Of a DNA stretch of 64,000 nucleotides, positions 44,770 through 64,000 are shown in pieces. The stretch comes from an uncultured candidate division Zixibacteria bacterium (lineage in GTDB: Bacteria; Zixibacteria; MSB-5A5; RBG-16-43-9). The stretch lies in assembly GCA_963713865.1 (NCBI GenBank), contig OY970208.1, positions 992,001 through 1,056,000 of the forward strand, read 5' to 3'. Within the stretch, counting starts at the first letter, position 1. Each line of letters begins with the position of its first letter. The translations under genes and the position numbers were made by a program. Below the pieces are notes generated by a model. It did not search any database, was not told the origin of the DNA, and saw nothing but the letters and a program-made list of their open reading frames with translations.

Positions 44770-45600
44770 ATGAACCTAAAAAGAATCGGGATTTACCTGT
44801 TTTTCGGTTTAGTTGGTTTCTTTAGTTTTTCTATGGTTCGAGCGGATACAACGACAATTTTTATTAGCGATGCCATAGATTATCAAGGGCACATTCAAAC
44901 TCAGATCCCGGTCTATATCGACAATATAGATCAACATATCGAAGGTTTCCAGTTAGGGTTTACTATAATCCCTAACGACCGGGTTTATTTCACCACCGAT
45001 CACTTTGAAGTTCACTTTGATACCGTCTGTTGTGATACGATCACACCTTGTCCTCAACTCTGTGTAGATACTAATATCGCTCGCGTTGTGAAGATAGATA
45101 GAACTGGTTCTTTGACAAGTAATTTTCCTTGGTTTTCCGCTAGCGGAGAGGCTGGAGATACCACCAGTGATTATTGTATAAATTTAAGTGTTGTAGGAGT
45201 GGCTCCATCAACTCAGCCGATCGGTCCGGGTTTCGGAATTCTGTTTAAAATATACTTAGATGTTCTCTGTCTTTCAGATACCTTACTACCGGATACGCTG
45301 GTTTATATAAATGTATATGGAACTCTTGCTCAGGATGATACCCTGATCAAGGAAAAAAGGTTTTTACAGGGAAGGTATATAATATTAGCGGTTAAATATG
45401 GTGATGCGAATGGAGATAATAAGGTCTCAGTTGCGGATGTGGTTTATTTGATAAACTATCTTTTCAAAGGAGGTTCTCCACCTAATCCACTGATTAAGGG
45501 AGATGCGAATGGCGATGGAAAAGTTAGTACAGCAGATGTAGTTTACCTGATTAATTATCTTTTTAAAGGAGGTCAACCTCCCCATTGTCAGGAAGGATGA
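44770..45600 (+). CDS. Secreted cohesin-like + C-terminal dockerin-like protein
   Basis: IPVYIDN..IEGFQLGF...I.PG.GILFKI pattern; YGDANGDNKVSVADVVYLINYLFKGG twice. Confidence 0.75.
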   Translation: MNLKRIGIYLFFGLVGFFSFSMVRADTTTIFISDAIDYQGHIQTQIPVYIDNIDQHIEGFQLGFTIIPNDRVYFTTDHFEVHFDTVCCDTITPCPQLCVDTNIARVVKIDRTGSLTSNFPWFSASGEAGDTTSDYCINLSVVGVAPSTQPIGPGFGILFKIYLDVLCLSDTLLPDTLVYINVYGTLAQDDTLIKEKRFLQGRYIILAVKYGDANGDNKVSVADVVYLINYLFKGGSPPNPLIKGDANGDGKVSTADVVYLINYLFKGGQPPHCQEG

Positions 45601-45622
45601 AAGCTTTGGGAGAACAGGCATT

Positions 45623-45644
45623 TCCTACGGATCCGTTCCTAGGA
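45623..45644 (+). mobile_element. 22-bp micro-element copy (TCCTACGGATCCGTTCCTAGGA)
   Basis: Its removal restores the palindrome gaacaggcattcctgcctgttc. Confidence 0.65.
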
Positions 45645-45930: not shown

Positions 45931-48231
45931 ATGAGAAAGAATTTATTATTAATTGTTTTGGCATTCTCTCTGGTGTTATTCTTCTCCAATTTAGGAGTTG
46001 CCCAAAACAACACACTCACTCTTCAACCAGTAACTCTTAATATTCATCCCTGCATTGGTGGAGGAACGGTAGAAGTTGACATAATGATCGCGACTTTTGA
46101 TCCCCAAATTGTGGCGGTTCAGGTTCCCCTGTTCGTGGGCGGGACTTCTGTTCCGGTGTTGAATACTATTCTGACTGGCCAATCCACAAGTCCGACTCCT
46201 CCAGGTCCTCCAGCATTCTTTGCGCCCAGCTTGTGTTACACTTTCACCACAAGGGTCGTGAATGAATTAATGGCTGGGGGGAATCCACTGTTGTTTGCGG
46301 CAGTCGATTTCGGCAATGGTATTGCGATCCCAGATACTGGACTCTATTGCCAGATGTTCTACGATGTATCTGGTCCGGGAACTATAACTTTTGATACCGG
46401 GTACTTCAATCCTGCTGGTTCATTGGGCATGAACGACCCCAGTGGTCCTCGTACTAACGTTGTCTGGGGTGGAGGCGCTGGCTGGGATCCAGTCCTTAAG
46501 GTATATTCCTTTGACGTGGTCCGGACTACTGAACAAGCACCAGTGGTTAATTGCCATGGTCCCTATGAGTTCTTCGTGAAGGACATTGTACCGATCAGCA
46601 TCACTGCTACTGATGGTGGCGGAACCCCAATGGCAGGAATCTTCCTGAAAGACCCGCTTCCCTGCGGAACTGGTTCTTTCTCCGGAACAATCGGCAACTG
46701 GACCTACAACTGGAACACCGATGGCTGTGATGAGGGTGAATTTGACTTAGAATTTGGTGTGTATGACGGCTGCGATACTGTCTATTGCACTGCCCATGTG
46801 AAGCTGATTGCTACTGTAGGGTTCATCTGGATCGGCAACACCTTAACAGATATCAATGGCGGTCCAGTAGATCCCTGCGACATCGTTAAGGTACCGGTTT
46901 GGTTGAAGGCTAACACCTCCTTTGGTGCCTTTAACCTCTACATTGAATTTGACCCGACTCTGCTTTATTTCCGGGGCATCGAGAAAGGTCCTGGCTTACC
47001 AGATGGATGGGAGTATTTCACCTACAGACAGCTTCCTTGCCCGATGTGCGGCTGCTGCAAATACAAACTGCAGATCCTTGGTTTGTATGACCTAAAGGAC
47101 AAGCACCAGGGTGTGCCGATTCCAATCGGCAACGACGTTGTGATCGCCTATATGACGTTCCAGGTGGCTTGTGATGAGAATATCAGAGGGTATGATCTGA
47201 ACATCTGCTTCGAATTTGACGACGGAATCTGCACAGAGAACACCTTCTCTGATGTTAGCGGTAATATGCTGTATGTCAGCGACAATCCAGAGTTCTTCAA
47301 CTATGATGACTGCGATACCGAGTTCGATGGAGTCAACGTCGTGATGAACAAGATGCATTTTAACCTGTACGCACCTCCTGGAACCCTGAATCCTGATGGC
47401 CGTGCATGCGGTGGAGTATTGGTGAGAACCACAGGCGAGAAGGTAAGAGGTGATATCAACCTCAACCTGATAGCTTATGACCCAGCCGACGTGATTCTGT
47501 TCTCCAGCTACTTCATCTATGGCGAGAAGGTGTTTATCATCGATCAACCGATTCAGATTGCCAATACTGATATTAACGCTGACGGATTCCCACTCTCCTT
47601 GTCAGACTTCATTATGATGATAAGGATTGTGCTGGGCGATGCTACCAAAATACCGAAGCCGACTCCAGGGTCTGACTTAGCCACCATCTATATGATTGGT
47701 GACAAAGTCTCCACCAATGCTACTCTGGGTGCAGCTCTGTTGACCTTCAAGGGTGAGGGCAAAGTTAGCTCTAACTTGACGTTCGAGCAGGGTGTAGTAG
47801 ATGGTAACATGAGAGTTCTGGTTTATATGAACTCCGGCGCTGGCGTAACGGGTGAACTGCTCACCGTTTCCGGAGCAACATTGCAGAAGGTTGAGGCAGT
47901 TGACAACTTTGGCAGACCGGTGAAAACCACTTTGGTCAACAAGGTTATCCCGACTGCTTTCGCGCTGTATCCCAACTATCCCAACCCATTCAACCCGACT
48001 ACCAACATCAGCTTTGCTCTGCCCGTAGACTCCAAGGTTTCCTTGAAGCTCTACAACGTGGCTGGACAGCTGGTCCGGACCCTGGTCAACGAGACCATGC
48101 CGGCTGGTAATCATACGGTTACCTGGGACGGGAGCAACTCCAATGGTGAGAAAGTTGCTTCTGGTATCTACTTCTACAAACTGAATGCTGGTGACTTCAG
48201 CAAGACCATGAAAATGGTTATGACGAAGTAA
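45931..48231 (+). CDS. Secreted scaffold-like protein: cohesin-like and Ig-like domains, atypical internal dockerin, T9SS/FlgD-type CTD
   Basis: VKVPVWL...FGAFNLYIEFDP..L...WEYFTYR; RGDINLN..DPADVILFSSYF..NTDINADG; YPNYPNPFNPTTNISF..WDG..VASGIYFYKL..TMKMVMTK. Confidence 0.8.
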   Translation: MRKNLLLIVLAFSLVLFFSNLGVAQNNTLTLQPVTLNIHPCIGGGTVEVDIMIATFDPQIVAVQVPLFVGGTSVPVLNTILTGQSTSPTPPGPPAFFAPSLCYTFTTRVVNELMAGGNPLLFAAVDFGNGIAIPDTGLYCQMFYDVSGPGTITFDTGYFNPAGSLGMNDPSGPRTNVVWGGGAGWDPVLKVYSFDVVRTTEQAPVVNCHGPYEFFVKDIVPISITATDGGGTPMAGIFLKDPLPCGTGSFSGTIGNWTYNWNTDGCDEGEFDLEFGVYDGCDTVYCTAHVKLIATVGFIWIGNTLTDINGGPVDPCDIVKVPVWLKANTSFGAFNLYIEFDPTLLYFRGIEKGPGLPDGWEYFTYRQLPCPMCGCCKYKLQILGLYDLKDKHQGVPIPIGNDVVIAYMTFQVACDENIRGYDLNICFEFDDGICTENTFSDVSGNMLYVSDNPEFFNYDDCDTEFDGVNVVMNKMHFNLYAPPGTLNPDGRACGGVLVRTTGEKVRGDINLNLIAYDPADVILFSSYFIYGEKVFIIDQPIQIANTDINADGFPLSLSDFIMMIRIVLGDATKIPKPTPGSDLATIYMIGDKVSTNATLGAALLTFKGEGKVSSNLTFEQGVVDGNMRVLVYMNSGAGVTGELLTVSGATLQKVEAVDNFGRPVKTTLVNKVIPTAFALYPNYPNPFNPTTNISFALPVDSKVSLKLYNVAGQLVRTLVNETMPAGNHTVTWDGSNSNGEKVASGIYFYKLNAGDFSKTMKMVMTK

Positions 48232-48248
48232 TCTTCATTCCGTTATTA

Positions 48249-48440: not shown

Positions 48441-50603
48441 ATGATGAGAAACAAACTCTTTTCCTTTTTTTTTGTTTTTATAGCTGCATTTTTTTCCTCA
48501 AGTCTTTCTTTTGCTCAAATCCCTGATACAGTTGGGGTAGTCGATACCTTAAGAGTCGGAAAGGTAACAGCTTATCCTGGCTCAAAAGTTTGTGTGCCGG
48601 TTTATGCTTTTAATGATGAAGACTTAGGAGCGATTACTGTGCCTCTTAGGTTTTCCAGCTCAGATGTTTTTTGCGATTCGGTTTCCTTTGTGGGGGCAAG
48701 GATTTCCGGTGATCCATTAAAAGGGGGGGAAATAGATACTTTGAATAGAACTATCAAGATTTACGACATATCTACCACTCAGATAAATTCCGGAAGTGGG
48801 TTGATAGCAAATATGTGGTTTAAAATAAAGGATGACGCTCTTCCACAAACCGTGGAAATAGATACTTTTTCAACGACTGAGCCTCCTCTTTCATTAGCTT
48901 TTGTCTATACCTGGGCAGAGGAGATGATCCCTGCATTCGTAAAAGGGGGGATCACTATAAAAGAGAAAAATCTGCCCCCTCAGATACAGCCGATTGGAAC
49001 CCAGTATGTAACTGAGGGGGATACTTTATTAATAAAAATATCTGCAAACGATCCAGAAGGGGATTCAGTAAAGTTCAGTTTGCTAAATGGTCCCGAGGGT
49101 GCTTCCTTTACAAATTCAAGTAATAGCAAGGCTACTTTCCTCTGGGTTCCTCCTTATACTGGACCCTGGTCTTCAGTGAATACCCCTTTCAAGGTTACCT
49201 TTGTAGCTTTAGATGGAAATAGCACTTCAAAAGAAAATGTGGAGATTAACGTTATAGATAAAAACCTTGGAGCAAAAGGTTATGTCATGGAAATCGGGTC
49301 AGATTCAGGTTTCTTCTCTGATCTTGTTACTATTCCTATTAAACTTACCAACCTTGATTCAATTGCATCTATTAACTTATTACTTAATTTTGATCCAAGT
49401 GCACTTTCATTATTGAATGTAAGCAAGGCAAATACAAGGACTTATAATTGGGAATATTTTCAATATAATCAGCCTGCATCCGGTGATATTAGGATCTCAG
49501 GACTTGCTGACATCCCATTATTACCACTTAATCCTCCCTTACCTCCCGGAGAGGGAGTAATAGCTAATTTGAATTTCCAGATCATACTTGATACTAGTCC
49601 ACTGAGTTTATCTACATCCATAAGATTTAAATTCTTAGACTCAACTGATAATACTTTGAATGGTGCTCTGGGGCAGAACTTTATATCGCAGAAAAAAATC
49701 ACTTACCAGGATGGATTTATCTATATAGAGAAATTAGATGTTCTATTAGGAGATATAAATCTCAACAGTATACCATATGAGATTGGAGATGCAACCCTTT
49801 TTAGCAACTATTTAACTAATCCAGTAAAGTATGTTTTCAATGAGCAACAAGAGCGCAATTCCGATGTGAATGAGGATGGCATTTGTTGTTCCCTGGCTGA
49901 TTTTATCTATTTACTTAGTAAAATATTAGAAGGCCCCGTTTTAGAAAAATTATTACCACGGACTGACATAAATCAGGTTAAATTAAAGAAGAGTTCTTCA
50001 AATCTTGATTTGTTTGTTGATTCAGATATCCCTATAGGTGGAGCTTTCCTGGTGATTAAACATCCGGGGATAACTTTTGGAACTCCGATATTATCCTCAG
50101 AAACAAAAGGAATGATTTCTATGATGAGAGATTATCCTGTAGAGTTAAGGCTCCTTATCTATAGCTCCAGAGCTGGATATATAGAACCAGGACAAAAGAA
50201 ATTAATCTCTATCCCTATTATAGATGGAGAAGGGGATATAGAATTATCCAAAGCTTCATTCTCGGATAACTTAGGGAATTTGATCAATGCAGGTATTTTA
50301 TTACAATATAATGAATTAGTTCCAGAAAAATTTACATTGTTTCAGAACTACCCCAACCCATTTAATCCAGAAACTAATATCTCCTTTACCTTACCTGAAG
50401 AGAGAGAAGTAATATTGAAAATATACAACCTCAGGGGACAATTAATTAAAGTGCTTGTTAACCAGAAATTAAGCCCGGGCTACCACACTTTTACCTGGGA
50501 TGGAAAGAATGAATCCGGAGAGGATGTTTCAAGTGGAATCTATTTCAATAGATTAATTGCAGGAGATTACTCTAAAACCATGAAAATGATAAAGGTTAAA
50601 TGA
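48441..50603 (+). CDS. Gene A: cohesin-like, Ig-like, cohesin-like, atypical dockerin, CTD
   Basis: VCVPVYAFNDEDLGAITVPL; VTIPIKLTN..IASINLLLNFDP; GDINLNSIPYEIGD..NSDVNEDG; QNYPNPFNP tail. Confidence 0.8.
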   Translation: MMRNKLFSFFFVFIAAFFSSSLSFAQIPDTVGVVDTLRVGKVTAYPGSKVCVPVYAFNDEDLGAITVPLRFSSSDVFCDSVSFVGARISGDPLKGGEIDTLNRTIKIYDISTTQINSGSGLIANMWFKIKDDALPQTVEIDTFSTTEPPLSLAFVYTWAEEMIPAFVKGGITIKEKNLPPQIQPIGTQYVTEGDTLLIKISANDPEGDSVKFSLLNGPEGASFTNSSNSKATFLWVPPYTGPWSSVNTPFKVTFVALDGNSTSKENVEINVIDKNLGAKGYVMEIGSDSGFFSDLVTIPIKLTNLDSIASINLLLNFDPSALSLLNVSKANTRTYNWEYFQYNQPASGDIRISGLADIPLLPLNPPLPPGEGVIANLNFQIILDTSPLSLSTSIRFKFLDSTDNTLNGALGQNFISQKKITYQDGFIYIEKLDVLLGDINLNSIPYEIGDATLFSNYLTNPVKYVFNEQQERNSDVNEDGICCSLADFIYLLSKILEGPVLEKLLPRTDINQVKLKKSSSNLDLFVDSDIPIGGAFLVIKHPGITFGTPILSSETKGMISMMRDYPVELRLLIYSSRAGYIEPGQKKLISIPIIDGEGDIELSKASFSDNLGNLINAGILLQYNELVPEKFTLFQNYPNPFNPETNISFTLPEEREVILKIYNLRGQLIKVLVNQKLSPGYHTFTWDGKNESGEDVSSGIYFNRLIAGDYSKTMKMIKVK

Positions 50604-50719
50604 TTTCCACTTATTGAGTAATATGATTCAAAGAACTAACTTAGAATGATATAATATATCAGAATAGAAGATCATAGAGAAGATTAAAAGATAGAAAAAA
50701 TTATGAAAAGGAATTTAAG

Positions 50720-52972
50720 ATGAGAGGAAAAGCCTTTTTTCAAAAGAAACAAATGTGGGGAATAATTTGTTTGGTAGTCTTATCAGTTATACTTTTCGTT
50801 CCGAAAAGCTGGTCTCAAACTATTCCTCGACCGCAAGACACTTTAAGAGTTATAGATGCCTCTGGTATACCTGGAGATACAGCGGTTTGGGTATCAATCT
50901 ATTTAAGAAACAGTATATCCGTTTCAATTTTTACTTTACAATTGGTTTTTGATGAGAATTTGATTGAGCCCAAGGAAATTGTAGTTGGTACTGATACTAT
51001 GATAAATGCAGTAGCTACTGCAAGAGATACTTTTTTTGAAGACCATCCATCAGATCAGTGGAAAACTTTTGCAGGATCAAGAATCGATGATTCTACCATT
51101 ATCTTTATGGCTGCCAGTCTTGATTCTATGATGTATAGAGATACCATAGCATCTGGAACTGGACTAATACTGCGTATCCAGTTTATGGTGAGCTCAAGTA
51201 TTACCAAAGACACTACCACATCGATAAGATTTTTAGATGACACCTTAGGTAGCTATAACCTCATAGTACATGCAACACGAAGTTCAATAGATCAATATAA
51301 ACTTTCTCAAACCTCTGGTACTTTTACCATAACTACTGGAGGAACACCTGGAAATCATTCACCTGTTTTTGGTACACTGGCAAGCCAGTTTGAAGTAACA
51401 GAGGGACAGACCTTAGCTTTTACGGTAAGTGCCAGTGATGAGGATGGAGATACGGTTACCCTATCTGCGGATGCTCTACCACCTAATGCTACCTTTCCCA
51501 CGGTTAAAGGAGTCAGTGCCGTTTCTCAAACCTTCAGTTTTTCCCCTGATTTCACTCAGGGACCGGATACTATCAGCATAACTTTTAGAGCAAGAGATGA
51601 ACATGGCGCCAGTACTTTAAAGACAGTAACAATTATAATAAATGCTGTCCCTCAGGATCTATTGATAGTCACTAAAGATCGCGGTGGCGTTCCGGGAAGC
51701 ACTGGTAAGCTTGTACCTTTGATTCTAACTAACCTTCAGGATGTCTATGGAATTCAATTTACCCTTCACTTTGATTCAACCGCATTAGAGGTTGATTCAT
51801 TTGTCCCAACGGAAAGAATAAATGGATTTAACATAAAATCTAACTTAGGAGATAGCTCCAATCAAGTAACAGTTCTTGTTTTAAACTTGAATAATCAAGT
51901 TATACCCCCTGGCTCAGATACCATTTTATATTTTGCTTTATCAGTCGATTCTTTAGCGAATCCTGGGGTGAGACCTTTGGCCCTAACTAAAGCTCGGGAA
52001 GCTATAGGTATTACTACCCCGTCAAAAGAGTTGGAAGTTGTGAATGGATTTTTTACTGTGGATAAATTCGGGGATGTTAATTTGGATACTTTAGTTGATA
52101 TTGGGGATGTGGTTTATTTGATAGCTTATATATTAGAAGATGTAACGATTAATCCACGTCAGGCAGAGGCAGCCGACATAAACCGGGATGGGATTGTAAA
52201 TGTTGGTGATTTAGTAGGGGTGATCAATACTATTTTGGGTCGACCCATCAATGCTCCGATACCTCCTTTCCGTGAGCCTTTAGCTTACCTCCACTTAGAA
52301 TATGACTCTTTGCAAGCGGGTAGCGAAGGGAAGATAGATTTGTGGGCGGATTTGAAGACCTCGGTAGCAGGGGTTCAATTAAAAATAAAGTATGACCCAG
52401 AACAGATGACTTTCTCTGCTCCGAAATTAACTTCCAGATCAAATAGTTTTGATACACTTTTTTACAAAGATGACGGAAAGGGAAATCTGACTGTTGTATT
52501 CTTTAGGTTTGGCAAAGCCCCCATTGCCCCCGGAGAAGGTAGTATTCTTTCTCTGCCAGTGGTTGCCAGCTCAAATTTTGACAAGGGGAAAATGCAATTA
52601 TACTTAAAAGAAGCAATCTTAGCTGACCCAGAGGCAGTGGTTATACCGGTGGATAAAGGTGAAGTGATACTGCCTAAATCATTCAGCTTGAGCCAGAACT
52701 ATCCCAACCCGTTCAACCCAAATACGACTATAAGATTTGAGATAGGTGTAGGTGGAGGAAATCAAGCAGCGGTGAATACAACCTTAAAGGTCTATAATAT
52801 CTTAGGTCAAGTAGTAAAAACTTTAGTGAATGAGCCTAAATTGCCTGGGATTTATTATCAGACCTGGGATGGTAAGAATGAGCAAGGGGAAAAGGTTTCC
52901 TCAGGTCTTTATTTTTACCAGTTGAGAGCAGGAAATTACAACGAAACGAAAAAAATGGTTTTATTGAAATAA
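50720..52972 (+). CDS. Gene B: cohesin-like, Ig-like, cohesin-like, dockerin, cohesin-like, CTD
   Basis: VPLILTN..VYGIQFTLHFD; FGDVNLDTLVDIGD..ADINRDGIVNVGD; VAGVQLKIKYDP; QNYPNPFNP tail. Confidence 0.8.
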   Translation: MRGKAFFQKKQMWGIICLVVLSVILFVPKSWSQTIPRPQDTLRVIDASGIPGDTAVWVSIYLRNSISVSIFTLQLVFDENLIEPKEIVVGTDTMINAVATARDTFFEDHPSDQWKTFAGSRIDDSTIIFMAASLDSMMYRDTIASGTGLILRIQFMVSSSITKDTTTSIRFLDDTLGSYNLIVHATRSSIDQYKLSQTSGTFTITTGGTPGNHSPVFGTLASQFEVTEGQTLAFTVSASDEDGDTVTLSADALPPNATFPTVKGVSAVSQTFSFSPDFTQGPDTISITFRARDEHGASTLKTVTIIINAVPQDLLIVTKDRGGVPGSTGKLVPLILTNLQDVYGIQFTLHFDSTALEVDSFVPTERINGFNIKSNLGDSSNQVTVLVLNLNNQVIPPGSDTILYFALSVDSLANPGVRPLALTKAREAIGITTPSKELEVVNGFFTVDKFGDVNLDTLVDIGDVVYLIAYILEDVTINPRQAEAADINRDGIVNVGDLVGVINTILGRPINAPIPPFREPLAYLHLEYDSLQAGSEGKIDLWADLKTSVAGVQLKIKYDPEQMTFSAPKLTSRSNSFDTLFYKDDGKGNLTVVFFRFGKAPIAPGEGSILSLPVVASSNFDKGKMQLYLKEAILADPEAVVIPVDKGEVILPKSFSLSQNYPNPFNPNTTIRFEIGVGGGNQAAVNTTLKVYNILGQVVKTLVNEPKLPGIYYQTWDGKNEQGEKVSSGLYFYQLRAGNYNETKKMVLLK

Positions 52973-53006
52973 AGTTACTTAAAACAAACTAAAAAAGGTT
53001 AGCTAT

Positions 53007-56000
53007 ATGAAAAGATTTTTTAGAAGTTTCCCGCTTGGACTTTTTCTTATTCTCATTTTTTATCTTCCAACCCGGGCTCAGAATGTTCCTCCTGTATTGG
53101 ATTCTATAGGAGCCAAGACTGTAAATGAGGGACAGGTATTGACGTTTAGAGTGCACGCTACAGACATAAACGGTGATAGTTTGATATTGAGTGCCTTGAA
53201 CGTTCCTACCAATGCCATTTTGGTAGACAGTGGCAATGGAGCAGGGTCGTTCACTTTCAGTCCGGATTATACCCAGGCAAACATATATAATGTGACCTTT
53301 ATAGCCACAGATACAGCAGGATCAGCAGATAGCGAGGTAGTGGCGATAACGGTGAATAACGTGAATAATGCACCGGTCTTAGATTCTATCGGAGCAAGAA
53401 GTGTAAATGAGGGTCAAGTTCTAAGTTTTAGAGTTCACGCTACAGATATAAATGGCGACAGTTTGATATTGAGTGCCTTGAACATTCCGACCAATGGAGT
53501 CTTCACAGACAGCGGTAATGGGTCAGGCTCATTCACCTTCAGTCCGGATTATACCCAGGCAAATATTTACAATGTGACCTTTATCGCTACTGATACAGCA
53601 GGATCAGCAGATAGCGAGGTAGTGGCGATAACGGTGAACAATGTAAATAATGCACCGGTCTTAGATTCAATAGGAGCAAGGAGTGTGAATGAGGGGCAAG
53701 TATTGACCTTTAGAGTACATGCCACAGATATCAATGGAGACAATTTGATCTTGAGTGCTTTGAATGTACCCACCAATGCCAGCTTTATAGATAGCACTAA
53801 CGGTTCGGGTTCATTTACTTTCAGTCCAGATTATACCCAGGCGGGTATATATAATGTAACCTTCATAAGCACAGATACAGTAGGGGCTGCAGATAGTGAA
53901 GTAGTCCAAATTACGGTGGTGAGCGCAGGAAACCAGACACCGGTATTGGATTCTATAGGTTCAAGGAGTGTAAACGAGGGAGCTAATTTAACCTTCCGGG
54001 TACATTCTACAGATGCAGATGGAGACAGTATAATTTTAAGTGCAACGAGTATACCTACCAATGCAACTTTTACTGATTCAGGTAATGGAGCGGGTTCGTT
54101 TACCTTTAATCCGAATTATACCCAAGCAGGAACTCATAATATCACTTTCAAAGCCACAGATCTATCTTCAGCGGTTGACAGCGAGGTAGTGGCGATAACG
54201 GTGAACAATGTGAATAATGCCCCGGGATTAGACTCAATCGGCTCAAAGAGTGTGAATGAGGGACAAGTATTGACATTTAGAGTTCACGCTACAGATATCA
54301 ATGGAGACAGTTTAGTTTTGAGTGCTTTAAGCGTTCCCACCAATGCAATCTTCACGGACAGCGGAAATGGAGCAGGCTCATTTACTTTCAGCCCGGATTA
54401 TACCCAGGCGAACATCTATAATGTAACCTTTATCGCTACAGATACATCAGGCTCAGCGGATAGCGAGGTAGTGGCGATAACGGTGAATAATGTAAATAAT
54501 GCCCCGGTATTAGATTCAATAGGAGCAAGGAGTGTGAATGAGGGGCAAGTATTGACCTTTAGAGTACATGCCACAGATATCAATGGAGACAATTTGATCT
54601 TGAGTGCTTTGAATGTACCCACCAATGCCAGCTTTATAGATAGCACTAACGGTTCGGGTTCATTTACTTTCAGTCCAGATTATACCCAGGCGGGTATATA
54701 TAATGTAACCTTCATAAGCACAGATACAGTCGGTGCGGCAGATAGTGAGCTCGTGACGATAACGGTACTGAGCGCAGGGAATCAGGCACCGGTTTTGGAT
54801 TCTATTGGGTCAAGGAGTGTAAATGAGGGTTCTAATTTAACCTTCCGTGTTCATTCTACTGATGCGGATGGGGATAGTATAGTTTTAAGTGCAACTAATC
54901 TACCTACCAATGCAACCTTTACCGACAGTGGCAATGGAACAGGTTCATTTAGTTTTAGCCCGAATTATATACAATCAGGAATATACTATGTTACCTTTAA
55001 AGTTACAGATCCATCCTTAGCGGTTGACAGTGAGGTAGTGCAGATAACGGTGGTGAGTGCAGGGAATCAGGCACCGGTGTTAGATTCAATTGGAGCTAAA
55101 AGTGTGAATGAGAGTTCAAATTTAACATTCAGATTGCATGCTACGGATGCAGATGGAGACAGTATAGTCTTAAGTTCAACTAATCTGCCTGCTAACGCTA
55201 CCTTTATAGACAGTGGCAATGGAGCGGGTTCGTTTATTTTCAATCCCAATTATACCCAGGCAGGAGTCTATAATGTAACCTTCAAAGCCACTGATCCATC
55301 TTTAGCAGTAGATAGTGAGATAATTCAAATAACGGTAAATAATGTGAATCGTTCACCAGTCTTAGATTCGATTGGTACAAAAAGTGTAAAGGAGGGTTCT
55401 CATCTAACTTTCAGGGTACATGCTACCGATGCAGATGGAGACTTATTAGTTTTAACAGCTGCCAATCTACCAACTAATTCATCCTTTATAGACTCTGGTA
55501 ATGGAGCAGGTTCGTTTAGTTTCAATCCGGATTATAACCAGATAGGGGTACATAATATAACCTTTAAAACTATAGATCCGCTATTAGCAGTAGATAGTGA
55601 GGTAGTACAGATAACGGTTAGTAATGTGAATAGACCTCCAGTCTTAAATCCTATCGGATGGAAAATAGTGACTGAAGCTGAAACTCTTTCCTTTAATGTC
55701 TCAGCTTCTGATCAAGATGGAACAATTCCAATTTTATATACCAGTGCTCTACCCCGAAATGCTGTTTTTGTAGATAGCGGGAATGGAAGAGGAAGATTTA
55801 CTTTTACGCCGGATTATGCTCAACAGGGATTAAAAGATGTAATTTTCTATGCCAGTGACGGTAGTTTGATCGATAATGAGTGGGTTCTTATTCAAGTAAT
55901 AGATGCAGGTAACCAGAGACCTATTATGCAGGCGATACCTCCGGACAGCGTTATGGAAGGAGATACCCTGCTAATAACTGTTCATGCGGATGATCCAGAC

Positions 56001-57560
56001 AGCACTATACCAGCTTTATCTACTGGGGCATTACCCCTTAACGCTTATTTTACAGATCATCTAGATGGAAATGGAGTCTTTTGGTTTGCTCCTGTTTATG
56101 TGCAGTTTGGAGAGGATACCATAAAGTTCATAACTTCGGATGGCTTATTAGCTGATACTGAAACGGTTTTGATAACAGTGCTTGAAGCTGGAAATCAGAC
56201 TCCAGTTCTTTCTATACCCTACGATTCAACAACTGTAAACGAAGAAGCTACTTTAAGCTTTAGAGTTAGAGGAATTGATCCGGATAGCACCATACCTATT
56301 CTTAGGGCAAGTAATTTACCGACTAATGCAACTTTTACCGATAGTCTTAATGGAAGAGGGGGGTTTGGATTCTCGCCAAACAATTTGCAGGCGGGTAATT
56401 ATGTAGTTTATTTCCAGGTGTTAGATTCTGAGGATACTCTGATGACCTCAGTTGACAGCGTAACGATAATCGTAATAAACGTTAATCGGAAACCTAAATT
56501 CACTCAATGTATTTCTTCAACAAGCGTTCACGAGGGAGATACTTTGATAATTAATGTCAAAGCAACTGATGATGACGGTACCATACCAATACTAAATGTG
56601 ACACCTCACCTGGATAATTCGGTTTTTGTGGATAGCGGGAATGGTGTTGGAACACTTATGTTTTATCCTGATTATAGCCAGAGTAAACAAGACACTGCTT
56701 ATTATATTTCTTTCTTAGCTATAGACTCAGAATATCCATCTGATACTGGATACTGTCTCCAGCGAACTACAATGATTCTGGTCTATAATGTACCTGTGCC
56801 ACCGACTATCTATCCAATAAATGATACCAGCGTGATAGAAGGTGGAAGTCTAACTTTAGCAGATTCTGCTTATGATCCTGATGGTACTATTCCTACTCTT
56901 AGCGTCTTTAGTCTTCCAGCCAATGCTAATTATACAACTATTTCTGGGAGTGGTAAAGGTGTTTTAAGGTTCCATCCATCGTTTACACAAGCAGGAGTCT
57001 ATACAGTTGGTTTTGTGGCTACAGATCCAACCAATTTGGCAGATACAGAATTAGTTCAAATTACTGTAATAGAGGCTGGTAATCAAAGACCTAAATTAGC
57101 AGCAATTAGTGATAAATCAGCGGCAATTAAGGAAACTATGTCCTTTAAAGTCAGTGCTACAGATCCGGACGGCACTATTCCACAACTTTTCGCAGATTCC
57201 CTGCCACGTAATGCAGTTTTTCATGATAGCTTAAATGGAAGAGGTCTTTTCACCTTCACTCCAGATAGCAGTCAAGCCGATTCAATTTATAAGGTTATTC
57301 TCATCGCCTCGGACGGTTCTCTGGCAGATAGTGTCAGGGTAAGCATCACTGTGATTGAATATGTCAAAGGGGATGCTAATAGTGATGGAAAGGTGTCGGT
57401 TGCAGATGTGGTTTACCTTATCAATTATTTATTTAAAGGTAGTACTGCCCCTAATCCAATGGGTGCCGGAGATGCGAATCATGATGGGTTTGTCTCTGTA
57501 TCTGATTGTGTTTACCTGATCAACTATCTTTTTAAAGGTGGCCCGCCACCAGTGTTTTGA
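53007..57560 (+). CDS. Gene C: 15 tandem Ig/cadherin-like repeats of about 95 aa plus C-terminal dockerin-like domain
   Basis: NxxPVLDSIG.KSVNEG..LTFRVHATD.DGD...P.NA.F.DSGNG.GSF.FSPDYTQ repeats; KGDANSDGKVSVADVVYLINYLFKG. Confidence 0.88.
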   Translation: MKRFFRSFPLGLFLILIFYLPTRAQNVPPVLDSIGAKTVNEGQVLTFRVHATDINGDSLILSALNVPTNAILVDSGNGAGSFTFSPDYTQANIYNVTFIATDTAGSADSEVVAITVNNVNNAPVLDSIGARSVNEGQVLSFRVHATDINGDSLILSALNIPTNGVFTDSGNGSGSFTFSPDYTQANIYNVTFIATDTAGSADSEVVAITVNNVNNAPVLDSIGARSVNEGQVLTFRVHATDINGDNLILSALNVPTNASFIDSTNGSGSFTFSPDYTQAGIYNVTFISTDTVGAADSEVVQITVVSAGNQTPVLDSIGSRSVNEGANLTFRVHSTDADGDSIILSATSIPTNATFTDSGNGAGSFTFNPNYTQAGTHNITFKATDLSSAVDSEVVAITVNNVNNAPGLDSIGSKSVNEGQVLTFRVHATDINGDSLVLSALSVPTNAIFTDSGNGAGSFTFSPDYTQANIYNVTFIATDTSGSADSEVVAITVNNVNNAPVLDSIGARSVNEGQVLTFRVHATDINGDNLILSALNVPTNASFIDSTNGSGSFTFSPDYTQAGIYNVTFISTDTVGAADSELVTITVLSAGNQAPVLDSIGSRSVNEGSNLTFRVHSTDADGDSIVLSATNLPTNATFTDSGNGTGSFSFSPNYIQSGIYYVTFKVTDPSLAVDSEVVQITVVSAGNQAPVLDSIGAKSVNESSNLTFRLHATDADGDSIVLSSTNLPANATFIDSGNGAGSFIFNPNYTQAGVYNVTFKATDPSLAVDSEIIQITVNNVNRSPVLDSIGTKSVKEGSHLTFRVHATDADGDLLVLTAANLPTNSSFIDSGNGAGSFSFNPDYNQIGVHNITFKTIDPLLAVDSEVVQITVSNVNRPPVLNPIGWKIVTEAETLSFNVSASDQDGTIPILYTSALPRNAVFVDSGNGRGRFTFTPDYAQQGLKDVIFYASDGSLIDNEWVLIQVIDAGNQRPIMQAIPPDSVMEGDTLLITVHADDPDSTIPALSTGALPLNAYFTDHLDGNGVFWFAPVYVQFGEDTIKFITSDGLLADTETVLITVLEAGNQTPVLSIPYDSTTVNEEATLSFRVRGIDPDSTIPILRASNLPTNATFTDSLNGRGGFGFSPNNLQAGNYVVYFQVLDSEDTLMTSVDSVTIIVINVNRKPKFTQCISSTSVHEGDTLIINVKATDDDGTIPILNVTPHLDNSVFVDSGNGVGTLMFYPDYSQSKQDTAYYISFLAIDSEYPSDTGYCLQRTTMILVYNVPVPPTIYPINDTSVIEGGSLTLADSAYDPDGTIPTLSVFSLPANANYTTISGSGKGVLRFHPSFTQAGVYTVGFVATDPTNLADTELVQITVIEAGNQRPKLAAISDKSAAIKETMSFKVSATDPDGTIPQLFADSLPRNAVFHDSLNGRGLFTFTPDSSQADSIYKVILIASDGSLADSVRVSITVIEYVKGDANSDGKVSVADVVYLINYLFKGSTAPNPMGAGDANHDGFVSVSDCVYLINYLFKGGPPPVF

Positions 57561-57767: not shown

Positions 57768-59390
57768 ATGTATAAACTATCCTCTATTTTCTTTGTCTTT
57801 TTATTCTTCATTTTTTTTCTTACGCCACCCCTCTTTCCCCAAATCCCTGATACAGTGGGTTTAGTTGATACCTTAAGGGTTGGAAAGGTAACAGCTTATC
57901 CTGGCTCAAAAGTTTGTGTGCCAGTTTATGCTTTTAATGATGAAGACTTAGGAGCCATTACTTTTCCTCTTAAGTTTTCCAGCTCTGATCTTTTTTGCGA
58001 TTCGGTTTCCTTTGTGGGAACGAGGGTTTCCGACGCTCCGTTAAAAGGGGGGGAAATAGACAGCTTGAATAGAACCATTAAGATTTATGCTATGACTTTC
58101 ACCCAGATAAGTTCCGGGAGTGGGTTGGTAGCAAATATGTGGTTTAAAATAAAGGATGACGCTCTTCCACAAACCGTGGAGATAGATACTTTTTCAACAA
58201 CTGAGCCTCCAGTTTATTTAACTTTCGTCTATACCTGGGCAGAGGAGATGACCCCTGCCTTTGTTAAAGGGGCAATTACCATAAAAGAGAAAAATTTAGC
58301 CCCTCAGATACAGCCGATTGGAACCCAGTATGTAAATGAGGGGGATACTTTATTGATAAAAATATTTGCAAACGATCCAGAAGGGGATTCGGTGAAAATA
58401 AGCATGTTGAATGGACCTGGGGGTGCTTCTTTTACAGACTCAGGTAATGGTAAGGCTACTTTCCTCTGGGTTCCTCCTTTTACTGGACCCTGGTCTTCAG
58501 TTAATAGTCCTTTTAAGGTTACATTTGTGGTTTCAGATGGAAATTACACCTCGAAAGAGGATGTGGAAATAAATGTAATAGATAAAAATCCTTTATCTAA
58601 AGCCTATGTTATGGAGATTGGGGCAGATACAGGTTTCTTCCCTGATATTGTTACCGTTCCAATAAAACTTACAAACCCTGATTCTATCGGGGCTATGAAA
58701 TTACTGCTTCATTTTGATCAAACCGCACTCTCTTTATTGAATGTGAGCAGGTTAAATACCAGGATTAGCAATTGGGAATTTTTTCAACCTAAAATAAATC
58801 AGCCAGAGGTGGGTGATGTTTTTATCTTGGGCCTGGCGGATATTCACGATCAAACTGTTACACCGCCTTTACCTCCAGGTGATGGGGTAATCACCAATTT
58901 GATTTTTCAGATTATACTTGACCCCTGTCCCCTTAGTTCTTTATCCGCATCTATAAGATTTAAGTTCACCGATTCAACTGATAATACTTTGAGTGGTGCT
59001 TTGGGCCAGGAATTTATAGGCCAGAACGATATCGAATATAAAGATGGATATGTGCTAATTAAATGTCCTACAGATGTAGTTGAGGGGGAACAGGACAACT
59101 CAACTTTACCCAAGGCTTATGAGCTTTCCCAGAATTACCCGAATCCCTTTAACCCTGTTACCGAGATTAAATTTGCCTTACCTGAAGAGTCTAAGGTGAG
59201 TTTGATAATTTATAATATAAAGGGGCAGGTGGTTAATAGACTGGTAGATGAGAGATTGAAGCCTGGGAGATATAAAGTCACCTGGGAAGGGAAAGATTCA
59301 GCCGGTAATAGAGTTGCCAGCGGGATTTATTTCTATAGATTAAAGGCTAGAAATTATAGTGAGACTAAGAAGATGATAATGGCGAAATAA
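57768..59390 (+). CDS. Gene A': paralog of A lacking the dockerin region; CTD present
   Basis: Highly similar to 48441 up to the second cohesin-like domain, then goes directly to LPKAYELSQNYPNPFNP. Confidence 0.85.
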   Translation: MYKLSSIFFVFLFFIFFLTPPLFPQIPDTVGLVDTLRVGKVTAYPGSKVCVPVYAFNDEDLGAITFPLKFSSSDLFCDSVSFVGTRVSDAPLKGGEIDSLNRTIKIYAMTFTQISSGSGLVANMWFKIKDDALPQTVEIDTFSTTEPPVYLTFVYTWAEEMTPAFVKGAITIKEKNLAPQIQPIGTQYVNEGDTLLIKIFANDPEGDSVKISMLNGPGGASFTDSGNGKATFLWVPPFTGPWSSVNSPFKVTFVVSDGNYTSKEDVEINVIDKNPLSKAYVMEIGADTGFFPDIVTVPIKLTNPDSIGAMKLLLHFDQTALSLLNVSRLNTRISNWEFFQPKINQPEVGDVFILGLADIHDQTVTPPLPPGDGVITNLIFQIILDPCPLSSLSASIRFKFTDSTDNTLSGALGQEFIGQNDIEYKDGYVLIKCPTDVVEGEQDNSTLPKAYELSQNYPNPFNPVTEIKFALPEESKVSLIIYNIKGQVVNRLVDERLKPGRYKVTWEGKDSAGNRVASGIYFYRLKARNYSETKKMIMAK

Positions 59391-59394
59391 AAAG

Positions 59395-61642
59395 ATGGAG
59401 GTTAGTGAATTGATGAAGAAGATATTTTTTCTGGGACTTATAAGTTTGGTTCTCCTTTTTTATTATTCTTTCTCTAAAGCGCAGGTTCAACTGACTAATG
59501 ATACCCTGAGAATTGGAGGGGGAAGCGAGGCTAAGAATGTTATCTATGTAAATAAGGGGATGACCAGGGTGCCGGTTACAGTTTATCTTAAGAATGCCTT
59601 CGACATAGCCGGTTTCCGCTTGCGGGTGGTTTTCGATACAACTGTTATGTCCCCCTATTACCCTTCTGTTCCTGAGTCGAGTTTTTCTCAGCTAACCAGG
59701 TCCTTAGCCCTTCCACTATTTGTCAAGGGCCTTTATAGTGATCCCTGGGAGATATTTTTCACAGGCTCTGCCACCTATGATCCTTCTAACGAGAATATAG
59801 ATGCCGGGAGAGGACCGATTGTTGAGTTTTATTTTAATATAAAATCTAATGCCCCTCAAAGGTTGTCGTCCGATTAAATTGGAGGATGATACATTGCCGG
59901 GCATAGATAACTATATAGTAGATATATATGCTACTGATGAATATATTCCAGTTCTGGTCAATGGCACCATTTGCGTGAGTGATACTATCACGACTATCAA
60001 TCATCCCCCGGTTATCTCCTCAGTTGGTCCACAGTCGGTTGTGGTGGGAGAGACTTTGACTTTTTCGGTCAGTGCCTCTGATCAAGATAATGACCAGATC
60101 ACCCTATTTGCTCAGAATCTACCTTCAAACTCATCTTTCCCACAGGTTCAGGGCATAGGTAGCGTTACCGGGGATTTTACCTTTATTCCTACTGCAGTAC
60201 AAGCCCCGGGCACTTTTTTTGTTAATTTTATTGCAAGAGATGACAGCTTAGTAGCAGATACTATAACTGTAACCATTTTCCTTTATGAGGAGGTAATCCC
60301 TCCTCAGGAACCTACCGACAAATTAAAGATCTTGAGCACCGAAGGTGGTGTTCCAGGTAGCACCGGGAAATTGGTCCCACTCTATCTTATCAACGAAGAG
60401 GATACGGTTTACGGAGTCGAGTTCACTTTAAGTTATAATCATCAGGCGATCATAATTGATTCCATTCTCCCTGCGTCGAGGATAGAGGGTTTTTCAATTT
60501 ATTCTAATCGGGGGGATAGCTTAGGGAAACTTACTGTCTTGCTTTTTGGCCTGGGTAATGAGATGATCTTACCCGGTTCTGATACCATACTTTATTTAGC
60601 CATGAGCGTCGATACCTTGGCTCCATTTGGTAACACCGCCCTTGATCTTATAAGTGGCTGGGAGGCAATAAGCATAGATCCAACTGATTCCTCAAGGGCT
60701 TTAGCCCTGACAGATGGTTTTTTTGCAGTGGATAGGTTCGGGGATGTGAATTTAGATAGGAGAATAAATGTCGCAGATGTGGTTAGTTTAGTAGCTTATA
60801 TTCTGGGGAATATCTCCTTAGACACTCGCCATTGGGATGCAGCGGATATAAATCGAGATTGGGGTGTGAATGTAGGCGATTTAGTTGGGGTGATAAATAC
60901 GATCTTAGGCAGGTCAATCAGTGCTCCGATAGGAACTTTGCGTGAGCCTTTAGCTTACCTTCACTTAGAATATGACTCTTTGCAAGCGGGTAGTGAAGGG
61001 AAGATAGATTTGTGGGCAGATTTAAAGACTTCCGTAGCTGGGGTTCAATTGAAAATAAAATATGATCCTGAGCAATTAACTTTTTCAACTCCAGCTTTAA
61101 CTTCCAGATCAAATAGTTTTGATACACTTTTTTATAAAGATGATGGAAAAGGTAATCTGACTGTTGTTTTCTTTAGGTTTGGCAAAGCCCCCATTGCCCC
61201 CGGAGAAGGTAGTATTCTTTCTCTGCCAGTGGTTGCCAGCTCAAATTTTGATAAAGAGAAATTACAATTATACTTAAAAGAAGCAATCTTAGCTGACCCA
61301 GAGGCAGTGGTTATACCTGTGGATAAAGGCGAAGTGATACTGCCTAAATCATTCAACTTGAACCAGAACTATCCCAATCCATTCAATCCCAATACTACTA
61401 TAAGATTTGAGATAGGTGTAGATGGAGGAAATCAAGCAGCAGTGAATACAACCTTGAAGGTCTATAATATATTGGGTCAAGTGGTCAAAACTTTAGTGAA
61501 TGAGCCTAAATTGCCTGGGATTTATTATCAGACCTGGGATGGTAAGAATGAGCAGGGAGAAAAGGTTTCCTCAGGCCTTTATTTCTATCAGCTGAGATCA
61601 GGGAATTACAGCGAAACGAAGAAAATGGTTTTATTGAAATAA
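59395..61642 (+). CDS. Gene B': paralog of B (+1 frameshift at about 59860)
   Basis: ORFs 59395-59877 and 59849-61642 join as NAPQGCRPIKL; the C-terminal ~240 aa are almost identical to gene B. Confidence 0.82.
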
Positions 61643-61676
61643 AGTTACTTAAAACAAACTAAAAAAGGTTAGCCAT

Positions 61677-64000
61677 ATGAAAAGATTTTTTAGAAGTTTC
61701 CCGCTTGGTCTTTTTCTTATTCTCATTTTTTATCTTCCAGCCCGGGCCCAGAATAATGCTCCGGTATTGGATTCTATAGGACCCCAGAGCGTAGATGAAG
61801 GACAGGTATTAACCTTCCAGATTCACGCTACGGATGCAGATGGAGATAGTATAGTTCTAAATGCTACTAACATACCCGCCAATGTAACCTTTACCGATTC
61901 AGGAAATGGAGCGGGATCGTTCACTTTCAGCCCGGATTATACCCAGGCGAACATATATAATGTAACCTTTATAGTTACAGATACATCAGGCTCAGCAGAC
62001 AGCGAGGTAGTAGCGATAACGGTAAATAATGTAAATGATGCGCCGGTATTAGACTCGATAGGAGCAAAGAGTGTGAATGAGGGACAGGTATTGAGCTTCA
62101 GGGTACATTCCACAGATATCAATGGGGACAGTCTGATTTTGAGTGCGTTGAGCGTTCCCACCAATGCAGTCTTCACAGACAGCGGAAATGGAGCGGCTTC
62201 ATTTACTTTCAGTCCGGATTATACCCAGGCAAACATATATAATGTAACCTTTATTTCTACAGATACAGCAGGCTCAGCAGATAGCGAGGTAGTGGCGATA
62301 ACGGTGAATAATGTGAATAATGCCCCGGTTTTAGACTCGATAGGAGCAAAGAGTGTGAATGAGGGACAGGTATTGAGCTTCAGGGTACATTCCACAGATA
62401 TAAACGGAGACAGTCTGATTTTGAGTGCCTTGAACACACCGACCAATGGAGTCTTCACAGACAGCGGCAATGGAGCAGGCTCATTTACCTTCAGTCCGGA
62501 TTATACCCAGGCGAACATATATAATGTAACCTTTATTTCTACAGATACAGTAGGGGCTGCAGATAGTGAAGTAGTCCAAATTACGGTGGTGAGCGCAGGA
62601 AACCGAACACCGGTATTGGATTCTATAGGTTCAAGGAGTGTAAACGAGGGAGCTAATTTAACCTTCCGGGTACATTCTACAGATGCAGATGGAGACAGTA
62701 TAATTTTAAGTGCAACGAGTATACCTACCAATGCAACTTTTACTGATTCAGGTAATGGAGCGGGTTCGTTTACCTTTAATCCGAATTATACCCAAGCAGG
62801 AACTCATAATATCACTTTCAAAGCCACAGATCTATCTTCAGCGGTTGACAGCGAGGTAGTGGCGATAACGGTGAACAATGTGAATAATGCCCCGGGATTA
62901 GACTCAATCGGCTCAAAGAGTGTGAATGAGGGACAAGTATTGACATTTAGAGTTCACGCTACAGATATCAATGGAGACAGTTTAGTTTTGAGTGCTTTAA
63001 GCGTTCCCACCAATGCAATCTTCACGGACAGCGGAAATGGAGCAGGCTCATTTACTTTCAGCCCGGATTATACCCAGGCGAACATCTATAATGTAACCTT
63101 TATCGCTACAGATACATCAGGCTCAGCGGATAGCGAGGTAGTGGCGATAACGGTGAATAATGTAAATAATGCCCCGGTATTAGACTCAATCGGCTCAAAG
63201 AGTGTGAATGAGGGACAGGTATTGAGCTTCAGGGTACATTCCACAGATATCAATGGGGACAGTCTGATTTTGAGTGCGTTGAGCGTTCCCACCAATGCAG
63301 TCTTCACAGACAGCGGAAATGGAGCGGCTTCATTTACTTTCAGTCCGGATTATATCCAGGCGAACATATATAATGTAACCTTTATCGCTACAGATACATC
63401 AGGCTCAGCAGACAGTGAGGTAGTGGCGATAACGGTAAATAATGTAAATGATGCGCCGGTCTTAGACTCGATAGGACCGCAATTGGTTACTGAGGGTCAA
63501 GTATTAACCTTGAGAGTACATGCCGCAGACATAAATGGTGACAGGTTGATTTTGAGTGCTTTTAATGTTCCCACCAATGCCAGTTTTATAGATAGCACTA
63601 ATGGTTTAGGTTCATTTACCTTCAGTCCGGATTATACCCAGGCGGGTATATATAACGTAACCTTCGTAAGTACAGATACAGCAGGAGCGGCAGATAGTGA
63701 AGTGGTAGCGATAACAGTATTGAGCGCAGGGAATCAGACGCCTGTATTAGACCCGATTGGATCAAGGAATGTGAATGAGGCTTCAAATTTAACCTTTAGA
63801 GTTCATGCTACAGATGCAGATGGTGATGCTATTACATTGACCGCTACTAATCTTCCAGCTAACTCCTCTTTTGCCGATTCAGGTAATGGAGCGGGTTCGT
63901 TTACCTTTAATCCGAATTATACCCAAGCAGGAACTCATAATATCACCTTCAAAGCCACAGATCCATCTCTGGCGGTTGACAGCGAGGTAGTAGCAATTAC
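61677..64000 (+). CDS. Gene C': paralog of C, Ig/cadherin-like repeat protein (runs off window)
   Basis: MKRFFRSFPLGLFLILIFYLPARAQNNAPVLDSIG; about 8 repeats of 282-285 bp before the window end. Confidence 0.88.
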   Translation, partial: MKRFFRSFPLGLFLILIFYLPARAQNNAPVLDSIGPQSVDEGQVLTFQIHATDADGDSIVLNATNIPANVTFTDSGNGAGSFTFSPDYTQANIYNVTFIVTDTSGSADSEVVAITVNNVNDAPVLDSIGAKSVNEGQVLSFRVHSTDINGDSLILSALSVPTNAVFTDSGNGAASFTFSPDYTQANIYNVTFISTDTAGSADSEVVAITVNNVNNAPVLDSIGAKSVNEGQVLSFRVHSTDINGDSLILSALNTPTNGVFTDSGNGAGSFTFSPDYTQANIYNVTFISTDTVGAADSEVVQITVVSAGNRTPVLDSIGSRSVNEGANLTFRVHSTDADGDSIILSATSIPTNATFTDSGNGAGSFTFNPNYTQAGTHNITFKATDLSSAVDSEVVAITVNNVNNAPGLDSIGSKSVNEGQVLTFRVHATDINGDSLVLSALSVPTNAIFTDSGNGAGSFTFSPDYTQANIYNVTFIATDTSGSADSEVVAITVNNVNNAPVLDSIGSKSVNEGQVLSFRVHSTDINGDSLILSALSVPTNAVFTDSGNGAASFTFSPDYIQANIYNVTFIATDTSGSADSEVVAITVNNVNDAPVLDSIGPQLVTEGQVLTLRVHAADINGDRLILSAFNVPTNASFIDSTNGLGSFTFSPDYTQAGIYNVTFVSTDTAGAADSEVVAITVLSAGNQTPVLDPIGSRNVNEASNLTFRVHATDADGDAITLTATNLPANSSFADSGNGAGSFTFNPNYTQAGTHNITFKATDPSLAVDSEVVAI

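Follow-up and report, generated by a model that had tools for sequence, protein, structure and literature searches.

Which function is served by a row of secreted, multi-modular proteins encoded at one end of a 64-kb stretch of Zixibacteria DNA? The whole stretch is called the window here, and the locus in question occupies window positions 44770-64000; genes are named after their first position in the window. The host genome (2.72 Mb, a single contig, 94% complete) belongs to the Zixibacteria. A first, sequence-only reading had proposed that cohesin-like and dockerin-like modules build a surface array in a diderm, non-Firmicute lineage. The lineage was borne out: among the best 120 UvrA relatives, the 12 that bear an NCBI name were all Zixibacteria, and of the five full-length scaffoldin homologues with NCBI names four were Zixibacteria, the remaining one being labelled Terriglobales. 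As far as can be judged from the sequences, the locus would belong to a cohesin-dockerin display system of non-cellulosomal kind on this bacterium's outer membrane, a reading to which we assign a probability of about 0.6.

The locus was filled by nine open reading frames (ORFs) of at least 150 amino acids (aa), all on the plus strand, which correspond to eight genes once a split gene (59395 plus 59849) is joined. Signal peptides were judged with a crude hydrophobicity script. All eight genes had a signal-peptide-like N terminus, and the sole ORF without one was 59849, the downstream half of the split gene. The ORF calls and the script thus agree with the earlier description of eight co-oriented secreted genes. 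The locus extends about 8 kb beyond the end of the window.

Five of the eight genes encode scaffoldins that end in a type IX secretion system (T9SS) sorting tail. Scaffoldin 1 (45931..48231) contains a signal peptide, an N-terminal beta region, a cohesin at about aa 305-459, a degenerate dockerin-like segment (aa 505-573) and a T9SS type A tail (aa 683-763). Scaffoldin 2 (48441..50603) is composed of cohesin 1 (aa 33-176), a Big_9 domain (aa 181-272), cohesin 2 (aa 279-432), a three-helix dockerin-like segment (aa 435-500), a beta region (aa 511-619) and the tail (aa 637-717). Scaffoldin 3 (50720..52972) starts with a weak cohesin-like region, followed by Big_9 (aa 212-305), a cohesin (about aa 318-448), a Pfam dockerin (aa 451-506), a further cohesin (about aa 520-655) and the tail (aa 661-747). 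Only 34 nucleotides (nt) past this gene starts an immunoglobulin (Ig)-repeat giant of 1517 aa (53007..57560), in which a Big_9/cadherin-like stalk (Big_9 298 bits, 12 stretches) carries a cargo-class dockerin at aa 1454-1508 (42.5 bits). A second copy of these three genes follows: scaffoldin 2' (57768..59390), with cohesin, Big_9, cohesin and T9SS tail and, unlike its paralogue 48441, no internal dockerin-like module; scaffoldin 3' (59395..61642), split into ORFs 59395-59877 and 59849-61642 and matching Pfam Cohesin, Dockerin_1 and the tail; and a second Ig-repeat giant (61677..64000, off the window end), whose full ORF of 1815 aa has Big_9 at 344 bits and a C-terminal Dockerin_1 at 38.7 bits. 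The first gene of the locus (44770..45600) encodes a small secreted protein with a predicted cohesin fold (aa 28-206) and a C-terminal cargo-class dockerin (aa 210-264, Dockerin_1 48 bits).

Cohesins were called by Pfam (PF00963, cut-off 24.1 bits) in 48441 (44.3 bits), 50720 (51.5 bits in two stretches), 57768 (41.9 bits) and 59849 (43.3 bits). In addition, hidden Markov models (HMMs) for dockerin and cohesin were built from the host genome's own sequences, the cohesin HMM being iterated, and the latter found three cohesin domains in 50720. The N-terminal 185 aa of 45931 matched neither Pfam families nor this cohesin HMM. Structural modelling with AlphaFold2 was confined to genes 48441 and 44770. 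The model of 48441 (40 sequences; predicted local distance difference test score, pLDDT, 81; predicted template-modelling score, pTM, 0.36) showed a signal peptide, a beta-sandwich (aa 36-173), an Ig domain (aa 181-272), a second beta-sandwich (aa 281-429), helices (aa 448-497), a beta region (aa 511-619) and the tail. When aa 33-176 and aa 279-432 of this model were aligned with solved cohesins by VIA-align, Z scores of 18.1-18.7 and root mean square deviations of 1.7-2.2 over 133-141 residues were obtained. The matches included 4uyp_A, 5nrm_A, 2vn5_A and 1aoh, and unrelated rows reached a Z of about 10; the non-cellulosomal 2xdh matched cohesin 2 with a Z of 17.6. Foldseek with the whole 720-aa model returned mostly generic multi-Ig chains, and the per-domain match to cohesins came from VIA-align. 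When sequences of the Protein Data Bank (PDB) were searched with phmmer, cohesin 1 gave no match and cohesin 2 only 4uyp_A (E 0.0046). The cohesin-like beta-sandwich patterns reported before for five genes were thus found above the Pfam cut-off in four of them, and both modules of 48441 matched the nine-stranded cohesin sandwich with Z about 18, although the sequence-only reading had allowed that they might fold as unrelated Ig or carbohydrate-binding module (CBM) domains.

The protein of gene 44770 had no Pfam Cohesin match. Its AlphaFold2 model (56 sequences, pLDDT 86.5, pTM 0.74) consisted of a beta-sandwich followed by three helices, and in a Foldseek search of the PDB all rows listed down to rank 50 were cohesins, with 2xdh at the top (E 2.4e-8) and 4uyp_A at TMt 0.80. 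By its model, this protein is a cohesin-dockerin adaptor. A distant 274-aa orthologue in a relative (L002 3730-4554) matched no Pfam family at E ≤ 0.001, dockerin included, and more distant homologues in a precomputed list likewise lacked PF00404.

Dockerins were found in the window by Pfam (Dockerin_1, PF00404, cut-off 22.9 bits) at seven C-terminal and two internal positions, with scores of 28.6-48 bits, and in the genome there were 66 matches in 62 ORFs. The seven window genes with a C-terminal dockerin lacked a sorting tail. Two of them are located in the locus (44770 and 53007) and five are dispersed: an SBBP beta-propeller protein (1..1497, +), an FG-GAP plus SBBP propeller protein (10329..13625, -), a protein with no other Pfam family (13908..15437, -), a secreted protein of 202 aa (26321..26929, -) and a right-handed beta-helix protein of 1857 aa (29683..35256, -). 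An eighth C-terminal dockerin gene, 61677, runs off the window. In 50720 (37.2 bits) and 59849, which also bear the tail, a Pfam dockerin is flanked by two cohesins. The earlier statement that seven genes end in a dockerin and never carry the tail therefore stood as a count of C-terminal dockerins, but dockerin and tail do co-occur in these two proteins.

The dockerin HMM added segments in 45931 (aa 505-573), in 48441 (aa 435-500) and in one tail-bearing cohesin protein elsewhere in the genome; those of 45931 and 48441 are regarded as candidate dockerins only. An alignment of 71 domains showed about 60 cargo dockerins that were near-uniform and internally symmetrical, and five divergent internal dockerins that occurred solely in tail-bearing cohesin proteins, namely four scaffoldins of the locus and the one elsewhere. 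In 51 cargo dockerins the calcium ligands D12, N14, D16, D23 and D45, N47, D49, D56 were invariant or at least 90% conserved. A profile of these 51 found 14 solved chains that carry a dockerin, for the most part with a type I label (3ul4_B, E 8.2e-9; 4fl4_A, E 4e-8), and by this comparison the cargo dockerins are type I-like.

The NYPNPFNP...KKM tail was located at the end of 45931, 48441, 50720, 57768 and 59849, 1-4 residues before the stop codon. All five tails passed TIGR04183 (cut-off 23 bits) with 34.1-39.9 bits, the extremes being 50720 (34.1 bits) and 45931 (39.9 bits), and they also matched PF18962 and FlgD_ig. The T9SS-type C-terminal domain claimed for five genes was accordingly recognised as type A in each. 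A search of the genome for T9SS genes, which the sequence-only reading had recommended, yielded SprA, PorU and a PorV-family protein. SprA scored 573.5 bits, or 711.5 bits with its neighbours (cut-off 200), and PorU 583 bits (cut-off 420). PorU adjoins an 896-aa protein of the PorV family (PorV_fam 220.5 bits, cut-off 90; PorV equivalog 164.7 bits, below the cut-off of 250) and a tail-bearing M6-like 'inactivated metalloprotease'. PorP/SprF-like matches were weak.

To obtain genome-wide numbers, Pfam matches in all six frames were assigned to ORFs. In the host genome a dockerin was present in 62 ORFs, a sorting tail in 38 and a Pfam cohesin in 11. The tail was present on nine of the 11 cohesin ORFs, and the remaining two bore a dockerin instead. 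Only two dockerin ORFs had a tail, both of them scaffoldins of the locus. Such a partition would be expected of a scaffold-and-cargo system. Of 65 ORFs with a dockerin by our own HMM, 53 were signal-peptide-like and none had a lipobox by the crude script. A second cohesin locus (L035; genome 1087445-1100491 and 1086922-1087563) lies 33 kb downstream and holds the genome's best Pfam cohesins. It encodes a two-cohesin protein of 1202 aa and a single cohesin of 272 aa, both tail-bearing. Next to them, on the opposite strand, come an M1 peptidase and two SBBP propellers, all three with a dockerin. Of eight genomes of the same family that were searched, seven had a counterpart of similar size to the 272-aa protein (an ORF of 282-310 aa with the best cohesin match).

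Inside the window, cargo families were assigned at E ≤ 0.001 or 0.01, and outside it at E ≤ 1e-5. Of the 62 dockerin ORFs, 14 were peptidases (S8 six times, C25, M1 and M14 twice each, C1 and M64 once each), one was an Amidase_3 and 14 were propellers (ten SBBP, three FG-GAP, one Kelch). Four contained a beta-helix, two were Big_9 giants, four combined cohesin and dockerin and one had an Ig_Rha78A_N domain. There was no other family in 21, and one had nothing at all at E ≤ 1e-5. The propellers, beta-helices and Ig stalks named by the sequence-only reading were thus present, but the peptidases had been missed. Since 14 of 62 ORFs with a dockerin are peptidases, a degradative role based on proteolysis is no less likely than the adhesion or sheath that had been suggested.

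A true polysaccharide-degrading cellulosome would also have multi-cohesin scaffoldins and dozens of dockerins, and the numbers found here are comparable to those of cellulosome producers. However, glycoside hydrolase (GH) Pfam families were found in none of the 62 dockerin ORFs, so that the reported lack of recognisable carbohydrate-active enzyme cargo holds genome-wide at the Pfam level, and no scaffoldin of the locus had a Pfam CBM match. A cellulosome in the strict sense is very improbable and was rejected on these two counts.

In the explanation we favour, the scaffoldins would be exported by the T9SS and fixed to the cell surface by PorU. Their cohesins would then capture dockerin-tagged proteins in a calcium-dependent manner, as the modules suggest, including peptidases, beta-propellers, beta-helices and the system's own Ig stalks. 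The divergent internal dockerins probably link scaffoldins to one another, by analogy with the type II pairs of cellulosomes. The outcome would probably be a complex at the cell surface with which proteinaceous particles, not cellulose, are bound and digested.

The arrangement is conserved in relatives. A five-gene cluster was syntenic in L001 (73% identity) and in L002 (43%), downstream of the same housekeeping genes, and the cohesin-dockerin-tail architecture was kept in both, as was the order cohesin-dockerin-cohesin. Across 41 relatives (the host genome counted), cohesin matches were present in 36 and dockerin matches in 39, with 8-111 dockerin matches each. The two genomes without dockerin also had no cohesin, and the three further cohesin-less genomes were 65-89% complete; these kin are not independent of one another. 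Between 8 and 111 dockerin matches per genome is the scale of true cellulosome producers.

Several points weigh against the display system. The pairing of cohesins and dockerins is a prediction. A look-up of RNA data sets covering 48441-52972 listed none. The cohesin of 45931 scored 20.8 bits and was under the Pfam gathering score, although the own-genome cohesin HMM found it with E 1e-35. Its dockerin-like segment gave nothing by Pfam, and aa 433-502 of 48441, three helices in the model, reached only 15.7 bits with Dockerin_1 (E 0.018) and were not called. By Pfam, 17 cohesin matches were spread over 11 ORFs, and with the iterated HMM 29 domains were found in 21 ORFs; cohesin modules are thus far fewer than the 62 dockerin ORFs, and they sort into many divergent classes. 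The 21 ORFs with a dockerin only may include enzymes of classes that stayed hidden. For the motor proteins GldK, GldL and GldM no match was obtained with TIGR03525, TIGR03513, TIGR03517 and PF12081 (E ≤ 0.001), models of which none exceeded its cut-off in any of 14 control genomes either; GldN was not searched. Either a very divergent motor is present, or this T9SS functions with none of the three proteins. The tail-less Sec substrates, finally, have no demonstrated route across the outer membrane, and the secretin clusters of the genome may be pili.

Some of these points would also be expected if the modules did not pair at all, the dockerin being a stand-alone calcium-stabilised tail or ligand module and the cohesins Ig-like spacers that form no assembly. 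Many non-cellulosomal modules have no evident partners; going by its title, a 2009 paper by Peer et al. reportedly places cohesin-like and dockerin-like modules of the non-cellulosomal kind in each of the three domains of life. The unequal numbers of the two modules, the divergence of the cohesin classes and the orthologue of 44770 in L002, which has no Pfam dockerin, fit such a situation. A complex prediction of cohesin 2 of 48441 (aa 277-434) with the dockerin of 53007 gave ipSAE interface scores of 0.02 and 0.01 (the mark being 0.32); for this one pair and with no controls run, it speaks neither for nor against binding. Against an absence of pairing, cohesin and dockerin co-occurred or were absent together across the 41 relatives, and the partition with the sorting tail was strict. 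The helix residues were uniform across about 60 dockerins and alike in both repeats, as expected for one shared partner, and only 34 nt separate a scaffold gene from a dockerin-giant gene, two genes that were duplicated jointly. We therefore consider the absence of pairing unlikely.

The route of the tail-less cargo bears on another explanation, in which cohesin-tail carriers bind the dockerin proteins in the periplasm and take them folded through SprA, so that the dockerin would act as a T9SS tag in trans as well as an anchor. In support of such hitch-hiking, 60 of the 62 dockerin ORFs had no tail, most had a Sec signal peptide and none a lipobox, cohesins were almost restricted to tail-bearing proteins (9 of 11), no secretin cluster was found at the equivalog cut-off of the type II secretion system (T2SS), and the T9SS moves folded cargo. 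However, we know of no precedent for piggy-back transport by a T9SS, and cargo of up to 1857 aa would have to pass jointly with its carrier. Furthermore, the genome encodes two secretins and a GspE/GspF/MshL-like cluster, all below equivalog cut-offs. This GspD/E/F-like cluster could export the cargo independently and is one candidate route for it, though it may also be a pilus. Hitch-hiking is thus rather improbable. Were it true, one sorting tail would serve a secretome of about 60 proteins, in a lineage in which no GldKLM-type motor was detected.

The internal dockerins suggest a third explanation. The scaffoldins could polymerise through internal dockerins and cohesins to form a lattice or sheath that is chiefly structural, with the capture of cargo being secondary. 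Internal dockerins were restricted to tail-bearing cohesin proteins and formed sequence classes of their own, the order cohesin-dockerin-cohesin was conserved in L001 and L002, and adaptors with both modules exist (44770 and the genome ORFs 1765191 and 1813183). However, two of the five internal modules were not recognised by Pfam, 57768 has none, and there was no evidence of a repeat lattice. A mainly structural polymer appears quite unlikely, and polymerisation as such is compatible with the display system and does not exclude it.

The tandem duplication of the three-gene cassette (48441/50720/53007 and 57768/59395+59849/61677) was evident from amino acid identities of 75% for 48441 and 57768 (431 aligned positions), 66% for 50720 and 59849 and 84% for 53007 and 61677. 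At the DNA level, positions 52166-55301 matched 60836-63968 at 85%. The third cohesin of 50720 (window about 52300-52770) and that of 59849 (about 60950-61420) were 95.5% identical over 157 aa. As the whole proteins share only 66% identity, the sequences point to gene conversion, or else to a partial exchange that the two cassettes underwent recently.

The split of scaffoldin 3' was inspected at the level of single bases. The ORFs 59395 and 59849 are collinear with 50720 (aa 12-160, then aa 169-750) and overlap in different frames at a run of A. One base at position 59858 was missing in the contig of a closely related strain, and a deletion of one base at this position would join the two frames. 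From the sequence, the split may be either an assembly indel or a strain-specific break. Two further genes were split in the same genome. A Ser/Thr protein kinase is divided between 7502-8056 (+; Pkinase profile positions 1-132) and 7923-10031 (+; positions 137-252 plus tetratricopeptide repeats, TPR), and PorU (genome 1611364-1615165) consists of an ORF of 1066 aa (L065 2365-5565) and one of 209 aa (5537-6166). Because kinase, PorU and scaffoldin are all split, single-base indel errors in the assembly are suggested. The dockerin ORF 13908-15437 (-, 509 aa) has no signal peptide and overlaps an upstream ORF of 646 aa without Pfam family (15373-17313); a frameshift has probably divided a single dockerin protein of about 1150 aa into these two.

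Two other genes were noted. A P63C-domain protein of 312 aa (121.9 bits; 18065-19003, +) is encoded on its own, with genes for surface proteins on one side and a SpoIIE-type phosphatase on the other; P63C domains occur mostly in phages or in a mobile context. Elsewhere in the genome, a multihaem cytochrome of 883 aa (MtrC/MtrF-like, c554-like) carries a T9SS tail (L053; genome 1995440-1998091, -) and is, by its sequence, a candidate surface electron conduit exported by the T9SS.

The proposed system shares parts with several known ones. With the clostridial cellulosomes (CipA, OlpA and OlpC of C. thermocellum; ScaA to ScaC of A. cellulolyticus), of which 4uyp, 5nrm, 2vn5, 1aoh, 3ul4 and 4dh2 are solved modules, it has in common the cohesin fold, the duplicated, symmetrical type I-like dockerin, several scaffoldins of which some combine cohesins with a dockerin, and dozens of dockerin proteins per genome. 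Clostridial producers, however, are monoderm, anchor their complexes by S-layer homology (SLH) domains or sortase, have cargo dominated by GHs and carry CBM3 on the primary scaffoldin, whereas the present host is a diderm that would combine anchoring by a T9SS tail with peptidase and propeller cargo; no X module was recognised here. In P. gingivalis the T9SS comprises the sortase PorU and the shuttle PorV, and cargo is attached to anionic lipopolysaccharide. Shared with the Bacteroidota are the type A sorting domain, SprA/Sov, PorU and a protein of the PorV family, but in that phylum every cargo protein bears a tail of its own. In the present genome a dockerin takes its place on most secreted proteins, and the tail is found on the scaffolds plus 29 other ORFs; a GldK/L/M-type motor was not detected, in searches without a positive control. 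As with 2xdh of A. fulgidus and other non-cellulosomal modules, cohesin and dockerin occur outside cellulose degradation. In such cases a genome mostly has a single module or a few of them, for which partners are often not evident, whereas here a whole secretome of 62 ORFs bears the tag and the scaffolds occur in a cluster and are conserved.

The closest published case is 'Ca. Stygibacter' (Cloacimonadota), for which a cellulosome-like system was inferred from metagenome-assembled genomes (Williams et al. 2021, PMC8542988). It is likewise a diderm of the Fibrobacteres-Chlorobi-Bacteroidetes (FCB) group with a tandem-cohesin scaffoldin that has a T9SS-type C-terminal domain, and with signal-peptide proteins that carry C-terminal dockerins and include S8 and C25 peptidases, all in silico only (PMC8542988). 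It has a single scaffoldin of 3755 aa with CBM2/CBM3 and dockerin-tagged GH18 and GH57 (PMC8542988), whereas here nine smaller tail-anchored cohesin proteins were found, with no CBM and no GH. The present system further differs in having dockerins inside the scaffoldins and in belonging to another phylum. Further non-cellulosomal cohesin-dockerin systems are reported for the amylosome, the mucinolysome, anaerobic methanotrophic (ANME) archaea and Planctomycetes. In the library searched, our literature search found no report that links Zixibacteria with dockerin or cohesin, and the one paper naming both Zixibacteria and cellulosome was unrelated.

Zixibacteria are widespread in anoxic sediments, and to our knowledge no member has been cultured. 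Judged from the sequences, their system appears to be a real, lineage-wide case of a kind known in silico, and its distinguishing features are its scale, the protease and propeller cargo, the internal dockerins and the problem of the export route. If the modules pair, plug-and-socket assembly would be a general way for diderms of the FCB group to build degradative and adhesive surfaces. T9SS tails and dockerins would then be alternative solutions to sorting, and some further route would carry the tail-less cargo across the outer membrane.

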